A stretch of 32,000 bases of DNA from Promethearchaeota archaeon (GTDB lineage Archaea; Asgardarchaeota; Thorarchaeia; Thorarchaeales; Thorarchaeaceae), in NCBI GenBank assembly GCA_027031765.1, contig JALVPN010000110.1, positions 30,990 through 62,989 on the forward strand. Reading direction: 5' to 3'. Positions within the stretch are counted from its first letter, which is position 1. Every line of letters begins with the position of its first letter. Under the pieces are notes generated by a model. That model was not told the origin of the DNA, ran no database searches, and saw only the letters and a program-made list of their open reading frames with translations. This document shows, piece after piece, positions 9,359 to 10,248 of the stretch. Both the position numbers and the translations under genes were made by a program.

Positions 9359-10009
9359 TCAGTCGTGTGCCCAGAACGAGTCCTCATCCATTCCCTCCTC
9401 GCCGCCTTCCTCCTCCTCCTCGCGCCCGGCCTTCTCAACAATCTTGACGAAGTCAGCATGCACCTTGATTGGGATTGTGTGAGGGCTGCCCAGCAGTTCC
9501 AGCGTGAGTTCTTCCTTTGCCGTGTCGACCCTGATTACCTTGGCATGCTCGCCCCTGAACGGGCCGGAGACTATCTCGACCACATCGTTCTCTGCAATCC
9601 CCTCGGCCGCAGGCTTCGGGACGAGGAACTTGTCAATCTCTTCGAACTTGACCTTCCCACTTACGCGGCCCCTGACATGTGGCACACCCGCAATGGCAAT
9701 CTCTACATCTCTGAACTCCATAGTTTCCAAGAAGACATAGCCCCTAAGTGTTTCAGGGACAAGGATTGCTTTCACTCTGCCCAGTAGTGGGTTCTGTGAC
9801 ACCAGTCTTGGCTCTGCCCTGTCGCCCTTCCTCTTGTCACACTTCTCCATGTGCTTGCGTGTTGCAGACTCCGATGAGAACTCCTCCCCGCAGTATGGAC
9901 ATGCCCAGACATCACTCTCACCCGTCACTGCGGTGATTATCAGGTCTGTTACACCTTTCTCCTGACCTATTGTTGTACGTACTGCATAGATGCTGGTCTT
10001 CTTGTCCAA
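9359..10009 (-). CDS. spt5: Transcription elongation factor Spt5/NusG with an inserted zinc finger and acidic C-tail
   Basis: IYAVRTTIGQEK, LRGYVFLE, KOW motif VEIVSGPFRGEHAKV; TTG at 10009 follows a GGAGGG SD; the longer track ORF runs through secE in another frame. Confidence 0.93.
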   Translation of the reverse strand: MDKKTSIYAVRTTIGQEKGVTDLIITAVTGESDVWACPYCGEEFSSESATRKHMEKCDKRKGDRAEPRLVSQNPLLGRVKAILVPETLRGYVFLETMEFRDVEIAIAGVPHVRGRVSGKVKFEEIDKFLVPKPAAEGIAENDVVEIVSGPFRGEHAKVIRVDTAKEELTLELLGSPHTIPIKVHADFVKIVEKAGREEEEEGGEEGMDEDSFWAHD

Positions 10010-10065
10010 GTCTAGCCCTCCCTGCTCCGGGATGGGGTGGGTATGCTCGCGGCCCGGACATGCCC

Positions 10066-10248
10066 CTACTTGGTGCCCCAGCCTGATGTGAGCACTGTCA
10101 TCAGGTACTGTACGACAAAACTCAGCATCCCAACAAGGAACATCGCAAGTAGGCTGACCCTTGTACTCAGCCAGATCTCCTTTCTCGTGGGTTTTGTCGC
10201 CAGTTTCAGGATCCGTCTGCTCTCCCGGATGAAGTCGCCAACACCCAT
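10066..10248 (-). CDS. secE: Protein translocase subunit SecE/Sec61-gamma
   Basis: RILKLATKPTRKE followed by one TM helix; conserved position between ftsZ and spt5. Confidence 0.93.
   Translation of the reverse strand: MGVGDFIRESRRILKLATKPTRKEIWLSTRVSLLAMFLVGMLSFVVQYLMTVLTSGWGTK

Follow-up and report, generated by a model that had tools for sequence, protein, structure and literature searches.

A predicted C2HC zinc finger within Spt5's NGN domain, and a co-occurring loop in Spt4, in one family of Asgard archaea

The spt5 locus and its product

Within the 32,000-nucleotide stretch of DNA analysed here, referred to as the window, the gene for the elongation factor Spt5 (spt5) occupies positions 9359..10009 and is read from the reverse strand, as are all of its component parts and the secE and L11 genes mentioned below. 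The open reading frame and its translation give a protein of 216 amino acids, followed by a stop codon. Translation begins at a TTG codon (10009-10007), a start position that is shared with the orthologues, and a Shine-Dalgarno-like GGAGGG (10016..10021), which can be read directly from the sequence 7 nt 5' of the TTG, probably serves as the ribosome-binding site. Directly upstream is the ORF for secE (Sec61 gamma, 60 aa, 10066..10248). Directly downstream is the gene for L11 (8608..9111), which is followed by that for L1 (7945-8607), both ORFs being named from their translations and the conserved order of the cluster. The ORFs of the window hence place spt5 in its usual ftsZ-secE-spt5-L11-L1 cluster, and the ftsZ-secE-spt5 order, which has been described previously (PMC10833476), is also found in G311, a genome from the sister family. 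The gene is present in single copy, with one match in the genome.

An earlier note, made from the DNA letters, had taken the product to be an Spt5 with an acidic C-terminal tail, and both parts of this description are upheld. The protein scores 147 bits against the TIGR00405 Spt5 equivalog model (cut-off 69.95), 58.3 against Pfam Spt5-NGN (cut-off 22.4), where the match falls into two separate stretches, and 23.3 bits against Pfam KOW (cut-off 22.3). When the full-length predicted structure is used in a Foldseek search the top matches are 3P8B_B, 9BCT_G and 4ZN3_A (E ~1e-15), the Spt5 structures of P. furiosus and M. jannaschii being the best of them. The first part of the NGN domain (aa 1-29, 9923..10009) provides strand 1 and helix 1, as defined by Pfam and by the AF2 model (E6-12, H17-30). 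The second part (aa 79-135, 9605..9775), defined by Pfam and TIGR00405, provides strand 2, which is the Spt4-docking edge, followed by strand 3, helix 2, strand 4 and helix 3. The KOW domain (aa 138-193, 9431..9598; Pfam) appears as a five-stranded barrel in the AF2 model, and the acidic tail (aa 194-216, 9362..9430) is predicted to be disordered (pLDDT <50). The protein terminates with the residues DEDSFWAHD, of which the SFW motif (9371-9379) is found in 118 of 120 homologues. Acidic tails with a terminal aromatic motif also occur in many other Spt5 representatives.

The insert that divides the NGN domain

The two parts of the NGN domain are separated by a family-specific insert of 49 residues (aa 30-78, 9776..9922), which lies between helix 1 and strand 2. 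Residues 34-57 (9839..9910) are predicted to form a beta-beta-alpha finger of the C2HC type, an assignment made from the AF2 model, Foldseek, VIA-align and profile matches. The four putative zinc ligands are C37 (9899-9901), C40 (9890-9892), H53 (9851-9853) and C57 (9839-9841), which gives a spacing of C37-x2-C40-x12-H53-x3-C57, or in full C-x2-C-x3-F-x5-T-x2-H-x3-C, and the protein contains no cysteines other than these three. The finger is followed by a linker (aa 58-67, 9809..9838) that reads DKRKGDRAEP here and is poly-Lys in most orthologues, and then by a third strand (aa 68-71) and a connector to NGN strand 2 (aa 72-78; together 9776..9808). The third strand is present as E68-71 in both the full-length and the insert-only AF2 models, and column counts show residues N73, L75, G77 and R78 of the connector to be invariant. 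The earlier note had described a finger with classical spacing inside the NGN domain; its position and spacing are exact, and both the predicted fold and the results of the profile search are in accord with it.

Across 93 distinct orthologous inserts the ligands, together with W35, F44, T50 and M54, show little or no variation. A search for the core of a classical finger, which consists of an aromatic residue two positions before the first Cys, a Phe after the second Cys and a Leu in the helix, finds the first two as W35 (93/93) and F44 (92/93), with the usual helix Leu represented by an invariant Thr (T50). The full CCHC set, which the earlier note had read in this single protein, is retained in 118 of the 120 closest homologues from the database and in 48 of 50 family genomes that span all 16 genera. 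Exceptions are known, as one genus, g6, has a Glu in place of the fourth ligand, C57, and a metagenomic variant, P0112, retains the insert with all four ligands lost, and zinc may hence be dispensable in some lineages. For the insert dN/dS is 0.084 as against 0.006 for the core, values that come from 33 close and non-independent pairs.

The predicted fold is consistent between models. In the full-length AF2 model the finger comprises E34-36, E43-44 and H47-56 with a pLDDT of ~88-91, and the model of the insert by itself (pLDDT 82.7) returns the same beta-beta-alpha arrangement. A profile built from the orthologous inserts matches C2H2 fingers in the PDB with values that range from 4.5e-5 to 9e-4, including INSM1 (4.5e-5), Aart (1e-4) and the archaeal-virus protein B-129 (7e-4). 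The Pfam C2H2 models remain below their gathering cut-offs, with 19.1 for zf-C2H2_4 (cut-off 27) and 18.7 for zf-C2H2 (25.2), at E ~2e-3. A Foldseek search with the insert model gives no match at E <=0.001, and its top rows are C2H2 and C2HC fingers. The model superposes on Tramtrack with 0.4-0.5 A over 22 residues, and the best VIA-align row is AFV1p06 (Z 3.6, 41/45 residues, rmsd 2.8), with Kaiso and the MOZ and MYST CCHC fingers also among the best structural rows. Such low Z-scores (<=3.6) are expected for chains of 25-50 residues and are used here as support at the level of the fold. C2H2 clusters are also among the matches of a Protein Atlas feature search with the insert, at scores (<=0.77) that are below the useful range. 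It is well supported that the insert consists of a classical beta-beta-alpha finger, putatively stabilised by zinc, then a linker and finally a third strand that would complete a small sheet.

One Asgard family, represented by MAGs labelled Thorarchaeota, has the finger-bearing Spt5 at full length in 84 of its 85 species genomes, in a sampling that covered all 16 genera. The insert is absent from Spt5 of the sister family (G311, 159 aa) and from that of the other Asgard families sampled, in which the matches begin at about aa 76-79. Moreover, none of the best 150 Spt5 representatives outside the Thor cluster contains a C-x2-C-x12-H-x3-C finger. The possibility of a misassembly, which the earlier note had raised against itself, is ruled out by the recurrence of the insert in 84 independently assembled species genomes. 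The broader suspicion that an assembly or annotation artefact, or a chance arrangement of Cys and His, lies behind the finger is hardly credible, as the insert is in frame, recurs in hundreds of metagenomic proteins as well as in those genomes, and has conserved ligands that are under purifying selection. It is well supported that the 49-residue module entered the helix 1-strand 2 loop in the ancestor of the family, to which the archaeon analysed here belongs. In a search of the same genome for a donor paralogue, residues 28-78 gave only weak matches (E >=0.25), and with Pfam zf-C2H2_4 the best match was Spt5 itself.

No description of a zinc finger in Spt5 was found in the openly searchable literature, subscription literature being beyond reach. 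A survey of elongation factors that included 218 Asgard proteomes (PLoS Biology 2026) makes no mention of one, nor do an Asgard review (EMBO J 2026), a paper on the Asgard ribosomal-protein cluster and a review of NusG. The family-wide variant is real and apparently undescribed.

Spt4 and the predicted heterodimer

The earlier note had suggested that the finger could either modify or replace the binding of Spt4. An intact Spt4 with its four cysteines is encoded downstream of rpoE in the same genome, and 79 of the 85 family genomes, among them all 24 of high quality, likewise contain Spt4, with an identity across the family of 74-91%. The canonical interface with Spt5 is, in addition, predicted with high confidence. 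Hence the proposal that the finger replaces Spt4 or makes it dispensable, for which the only foundation is the earlier conjecture that the role of Spt4 could pass to an additional zinc site in the NGN domain, fails on the genomic evidence and is highly improbable.

All 38 of the family Spt4 proteins compared contain an extra loop of 8 residues (LPGRDPHEDPRK type), which is positioned directly after the strand that docks onto Spt5. The loop is absent from G311 and from representatives of 15 other Asgard families. In the model of the Spt4-Spt5 pair the ipSAE is 0.72, as against 0.01 for the best of three controls, and the mark used for this score is one that 58 of 80 solved complexes attained, as did 2 of 110 mismatched pairs, counts that apply only approximately because the alignments used here were custom-made. 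The score may reflect likeness to the Spt4/5 structures that have already been solved. Agreement between runs extends to at least 89% of the contacts, with a partner pLDDT of at least 83. In the modelled complex residues 79-86 of Spt5 run antiparallel to residues 32-41 of Spt4, with further Spt5 contacts at 95 and 122-129, and the confident interface also includes residues 39-41 and 47 of the Spt4 loop together with residues 28-29 and 76-77 of Spt5, which form the stems of the insert. The Spt4 loop is thus predicted to rest on both stems of the insert. Neither the finger itself (34-57) nor the Spt4 loop at its tip (42-46) has a confident contact in the model, a result that, by the rule of the method, does not speak against their proximity. 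The suggestion that the finger modifies the binding of Spt4 is partly supported: an 8-residue Spt4 loop co-occurs next to the base of the finger, and the model retains the canonical interface through strand 2. It is likewise well supported, on the basis of the models, that the canonical functions are retained, including the NGN surfaces, the KOW domain and the docking of Spt4 on the strand-2 edge.

The sole coupling seen for the finger links it to Spt4, whose co-occurring insertion is at an adjacent position, and it could be that the finger and the Spt4 loop act purely as a structural buttress that enlarges and stabilises the heterodimer or the NGN fold and binds no new external ligand. The pLDDT remains high through the linker, which suggests rigid packing, and the attachment of the finger module to the NGN core appears to be rigid. 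Unrelated, Cys-free inserts in the same loop elsewhere indicate that the site is permissive, and the exposed positions evolve ~14 times faster than the core. However, a dN/dS of 0.08 across a family of 16 genera represents strong constraint for a decoration of 49 residues, the canonical heterodimer suffices in the sister family, and the recurrent Lys-rich arm suggests a role that faces outward in most members. A purely structural function is considered unlikely.

Possible roles of the finger and comparison with other systems

The surface properties of the insert bear on what it might contact, for which the earlier note had suggested nucleic acid or chromatin. The linker has a mean net charge of +4.3 across 93 orthologues, but the value is +1 here and about -4 in genus g15. 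A Lys-rich arm is thus not shared by all members, and contact of poly-Lys with DNA cannot be what has been conserved. With a mean net charge of -1 in the orthologous inserts the finger tends to be slightly acidic, and its helix positions -1, 2, 3 and 6, through which classical fingers recognise bases, vary and are often acidic, a feature that speaks against base-specific reading. A comparison by eye of the Spt4-loop and linker variants across genera gave no simple pattern of charge complementarity. Elf1 is present in the genome (63 bits), and its loss was hence rejected as an explanation for the additional zinc site.

In the transcription complex the upstream duplex and the non-template strand follow a positively charged surface of Spt4/5 (PMC3094117). 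NGN residues of the P. furiosus protein touch the upstream DNA in contacts that matter for processivity (bioRxiv 10.1101/2024.01.05.574147), and with Pol II the upstream DNA is surrounded by Spt4, NGN and KOW1 (PMC6150629). The reading preferred here, to which a probability of about 0.4 is given, is that the finger insert and the Spt4 loop would together give Spt4/5 a new composite lobe at its Spt4 face, the side that lines the path of the upstream DNA duplex as it leaves RNA polymerase. Such a lobe may provide extra contacts, not specific for sequence, to the upstream DNA or to proteins that are bound there, and some of these contacts could be made through the arm after the finger that is usually rich in Lys. 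Under this reading the finger is neither a sequence-specific reader of DNA nor a substitute for Spt4.

The finger and the Spt4 loop may instead act as a platform for protein docking with no contact to nucleic acid, the candidates for the docked partner being the surface of an RNA polymerase subunit, an initiation or termination factor that competes for the clamp, a chromatin protein or the acidic SFW tail of Spt5 itself. The residues that are invariant and probably exposed (E31, D33, E42, M54 and the aromatic at position 39) are not basic, the finger is neutral to acidic with base-reading positions that vary, and the insertion in Spt4 implies that at least one protein partner has co-evolved. 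Moreover, single C2H2 and C2HC fingers often serve in contacts between proteins, and examples of such fingers, the MYST/MOZ and UBZ types, figure in the structural matches. However, neither Rpo1N nor Rpo2 has a family-specific indel that would mark a new docking site. In Rpo1N (G000 and G387 compared with G311 and G117) and in Rpo2 (G000, G387 and G315 compared with G311 and G117) the only exceptions, for the two proteins together, are ambiguity of the start codon and one gap of a single residue; the G311 Rpo2 is cut by the end of its contig, and the first ~250 residues were compared with G117 only. With regard to its own tail, this acidic segment is predicted to be disordered and undocked, and similar tails occur in lineages that have no finger. 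Docking in place of contact with nucleic acid is considered rather unlikely.

An extended form of the preferred composite lobe can also be envisaged, in which the Spt5 finger and the co-evolved Spt4 loop would build a closed or extended wall around the DNA exit, convergent with that of eukaryotes, and the acidic, aromatic-anchored tail, which resembles a histone-chaperone motif, would help to handle upstream DNA and histone-bound chromatin. The KOW1 insertion of eukaryotic Spt5, which closes the DNA tunnel and is absent in archaea (PMC6150629), is a possible analogue, as it too would extend the wall around the upstream DNA, but it belongs to a different domain, KOW1 rather than NGN, and has a different fold from the Thor insert. 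Although this scenario seems improbable, it would, if true, give the KOW1 insertion of eukaryotes, together with the acidic region of their Spt5, a convergent counterpart in archaea.

Canonical archaeal Spt4/5, as known from M. jannaschii and P. furiosus (3LPE, 4ZN3, 3P8B), shares with the Thor protein the NGN and single KOW domains, the C4 Spt4 ribbon on NGN strand 2, the secE-spt5-L11 context and the predicted interface. In comparison, Thor Spt5 adds the finger module of 49 residues and the acidic SFW tail of 23 residues and is 216 aa long as against ~147 aa, and Thor Spt4 adds the loop of 8 residues. No transcription factor other than Spt5/NusG is known to be conserved across all of cellular life, and its NGN domain is usually regarded as an invariant core. 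A whole Asgard family is now seen to have, inside this core, a type of finger that is typical of eukaryotic regulators, is under purifying selection and is paired with a co-occurring insertion in Spt4. This offers a defined and readily testable case of the elaboration of the elongation complex in the closest archaeal relatives of eukaryotes.

Among proteins with a comparable finger, the archaeal-virus protein AFV1p06 (2LVH; PMC3541406) likewise brings a classical C2H2-type fold, with a structural extension, into the archaeal world. Its fourth ligand is a Glu, which the Spt5 of genus g6 may match. However, AFV1p06 is a free-standing viral DNA-binding protein and the Thor finger a domain inside a host elongation factor, and the likeness is one of fold, with a Z of 3.6 that is too low to prove homology. 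The finger of the MOZ/MYST acetyltransferases (1M36, 6BA2) has the same C-x2-C-x12-H-x3-5-C arrangement on a beta-beta-alpha fold, and the MYST finger superposes on the Thor finger with 0.8 A over 25 residues (MOZ Z 2.4), alongside a weak match to Pfam zf-MYST. These fingers are eukaryotic and embedded in an acetyltransferase, and the likeness is again at the level of fold and motif only.

The NusG proteins of Aquifex aeolicus (1M1G) and Thermotoga maritima (2XHC), both of which are among the fold matches, also have a lineage-specific domain inserted into NGN. In contrast to the Thor finger, this bacterial domain II is located in the hairpin of strands 2 and 3, is beta-rich, has a length of 70-170 aa and is not known to bind zinc, and Spt4 is not known from bacteria.

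The view of archaeal Spt5 as a bare NGN and KOW protein, from which the earlier note had started, describes the canonical proteins but proves to be oversimplified, as uncultured lineages have other inserts in the same loop and zinc modules elsewhere. A Heimdallarchaeota-labelled Spt5, P0126, has a Cys-free insert of 87 aa in the helix 1-strand 2 loop, and the N-terminal region of Spt5 from this lineage gave no matches in 400 sampled Asgard genomes. Inserts in this loop are also present in P0142, P0147, P0255 and P0267, making it a recurrent site of insertion. Zinc modules, too, have joined archaeal Spt5 several times independently, with a C4 ribbon in the strand 4-helix 3 loop of P0210 and P0258 and another at the N-terminus of P0245.

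The spt5 gene and the module within its NGN domain

The spt5 gene lies on the minus strand of the window (10009..9359) and encodes a protein of 216 residues from a TTG start, with the sequence GGAGGG found 7 nt ahead of the TTG on the same strand. It is flanked by secE (10066-10248, minus strand) and the L11/L1 genes, with ftsZ upstream, and ftsZ-secE-spt5-L11 is a conserved archaeal gene order (PMC10833476). The protein scores 147 bits against the NCBIfam Spt5 equivalog, for which the cut-off is 69.95, and Pfam detects a KOW domain together with an NGN domain that is matched in two separate stretches.

The NGN domain is split between helix 1 and strand 2 by an insert comprising residues 30-78 (nt 9922-9776, minus strand). 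The earlier note had placed a CCHC motif here, and this was recovered at identical coordinates as C37-x2-C40-x3-F44-x5-T50-x2-H53-x3-C57, in which C37, C40 and C57 are the only cysteines of the protein. AlphaFold2, supplied with a 120-sequence alignment, predicts strands at 34-36 and 43-44 and a helix at 47-56 (pLDDT about 88-91), with an additional strand at 68-71 ahead of NGN strand 2. This third strand is part of the module, since the insert predicted in isolation yields the same secondary-structure elements as the full-length model.

A profile of the insert matches the solved C2H2 fingers of INSM1 (4.5e-5), Aart (1e-4), the Sulfolobus-virus protein B-129 (7e-4) and ZBTB17 (9e-4). The matches of the Pfam C2H2 models all fall short of the gathering threshold. 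The upper rows of a structure search, although statistically weak for so tiny a domain, are mostly occupied by classical fingers, including Kaiso, BCL11A, Tramtrack, the C2HC fingers of MYST and MOZ, and AFV1p06. Tramtrack superposes at 0.4-0.5 A over 22 residues, whilst the archaeal-virus finger AFV1p06 aligns over 41 of 45 residues with a Z score of 3.6, both values carrying the weak statistics of a domain of this size. We put the probability that a zinc-finger module has been inserted into the NGN domain of the family Spt5 at about 90%, and the finger would presumably bind zinc.

Conservation and distribution of the insert

The nearest 120 database proteins (66-79% identity, 216-273 aa), of which those with names mostly bear Thorarchaeota labels, retain all four ligands in 118 cases, so that the ligand conservation on which the earlier proposal depended is borne out. 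Across 93 distinct inserts G30, D33, W35, P38, N73, L75, G77 and R78 are invariant, and C37, C40, E42, F44, T50, H53, M54 and C57 are retained in more than 97%. From 33 pairs of close and mutually non-independent sequences, dN/dS is estimated at 0.084 for the insert and 0.090 for the finger within it, against 0.006 in the remainder of Spt5. The insert is thus a conserved zinc-finger module under selection.

Amongst 400 sampled species genomes of the phylum, the insert is confined to the window's family. A full-length Spt5 match is present in 84 of the 85 family genomes, and in the sister family (one genome) and all other sampled families the match starts only at about residue 76-79. The sister-family Spt5 is a canonical protein of 159 aa in the same ftsZ-secE-spt5 context as in the window, with a six-residue loop at the insert site and no acidic tail. 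The full CCHC set occurs in 48 of the 50 family genomes whose gene was read, covering all 16 genera. Both exceptions fall within genus g6 (loci L090 and L091), where Glu replaces C57, a substitution for which AFV1p06 offers an experimental precedent, its finger having Glu as fourth ligand (PMC3541406).

Amongst 50%-identity cluster representatives of 1.84 billion proteins, the best 150 of which were inspected, the C2HC motif is found in two Thor-type clusters only. To judge from these sequences the classical C2HC finger in Spt5 is specific to the window's family, and no description of a finger in Spt5 was found in the searchable literature. The metagenomic homologue P0112 has lost all four ligands and keeps the insert at full length. 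A further homologue, P0101, has a degenerate finger with Thr at the position of C57.

Spt4 and the possible role of the module

Whether spt4 is present had been raised as a check, and an intact Spt4 of 70 aa with four Cys is encoded in the window's genome (L001:875-1704, contig C217, together with rpoE). It lies directly downstream of the RNAP subunit gene rpoE (Rpo7, 200 aa), from which it is separated by 14 nt, in the usual rpoE-spt4 pairing. Spt4 was found in 79 of the 85 family genomes, including all 24 of high quality, with 74-91% identity. All 38 family Spt4 proteins read, the most divergent genus included, have eight additional residues of the PGRDPHEDPRK type after the docking strand (GIVVIL) and ahead of the next helix, and in the window's genome the extra loop spans residues 39-48. 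The loop is short and canonical in the sister-family genome and in representatives of 15 other Asgard families.

The suggested modelling of Spt5 with Spt4 was carried out with residues 1-135 of Spt5, using custom alignments, and gave an ipSAE of 0.72 against 0.01 for the best of three controls. Of the solved complexes 58 of 80 reach this mark, as do 2 of 110 mismatched pairs, counts that are approximate given the use of custom alignments. Agreement of contacts between runs was at least 89% and partner pLDDT at least 83, although the pass may reflect likeness to solved Spt4/5 structures rather than independent evidence. At the predicted interface Spt5 79-86 and Spt4 32-41 pair antiparallel in the canonical manner, and the confident interface residues include 39-41 and 47 of the Spt4 loop and 28-29 and 76-77 of Spt5, at both stems of the insert. 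The finger is not among the confident contacts, and the model is uninformative on whether it touches Spt4. Spt5 and Spt4 have therefore each gained an insertion in this family, and the two sites are neighbours in the modelled heterodimer, which is the strongest functional clue obtained.

In P. furiosus the NGN makes functionally important contacts with upstream DNA (bioRxiv 10.1101/2024.01.05.574147), and the KOW1 insertion that closes the eukaryotic DNA-exit tunnel is absent from archaea (PMC6150629). For these reasons an extra lobe where Spt4 meets the NGN could lengthen the wall along the upstream DNA. We tentatively favour, at somewhat less than even odds, a composite Spt4/5 lobe that touches upstream DNA or DNA-bound proteins. 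In most members the linker that follows the finger (residues 58-67) is rich in Lys, and its net charge averages +4.3. Counting against a simple DNA-binding reading, the canonical base-reading helix positions are variable, the finger has a mean net charge of -1, and the linker is almost neutral in the window's genome and acidic in genus g15. A role of the finger module in docking other proteins is a less likely alternative. No compensating change was seen among the components tested, since neither Rpo1N nor Rpo2 has indels specific to the family and Elf1 is present in the window's genome. A purely structural buttress is judged slightly less likely than the docking role.

Other decorated Spt5 proteins and minor observations

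Insertions recur in the helix1-strand2 loop, where other archaeal Spt5 representatives have Cys-free inserts of 35-160 residues, including one of 87 residues in the Heimdallarchaeota-labelled P0126 (264 aa). Independent zinc modules also occur in Spt5 homologues of other uncultured archaea, in the form of a C4 ribbon in the NGN strand4-helix3 loop of P0210 and P0258 and an N-terminal C4 ribbon in P0245. Given these inserts and ribbons, decorated archaeal Spt5 proteins are commoner than the textbook picture. The helix1-strand2 inserts of P0126, P0142, P0147, P0255 and P0267 are mostly helical, charged and Cys-free.

The Spt5 of the window ends in an acidic C-terminal tail with a conserved aromatic end, DSFWAH (9362-9430, minus strand). 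It resembles a short linear motif for docking, for which the partner is possibly histones, the ribosome or RNAP. Similar acidic-aromatic ends, such as DDDWAKF and EDVFSEFF, are seen in many other long-tailed representatives (P0125, P0126, P0137, P0143, P0172, P0193, P0200, P0221, P0224, P0259 and P0266), amongst which P0126 was looked up and bears a Heimdallarchaeota label.

In one family genome (G313:C1:6208-8867; L120, L121) rpoA1 (Rpo1N) is matched as two pieces in separate open frames, at model positions 2-236 and 233-864, and the gene could be genuinely split or the break could come from a frameshift or a sequencing error. Many Spt5 representatives have a beta-rich N-terminal extension of about 120-200 aa ahead of the NGN, with a recurring P-x-G-x-R-Y-G-D motif in P0138, P0146, P0168, P0177, P0180, P0201, P0211, P0217, P0241-P0243 and P0257, and this could be either an undescribed fused domain or the product of mis-called starts.
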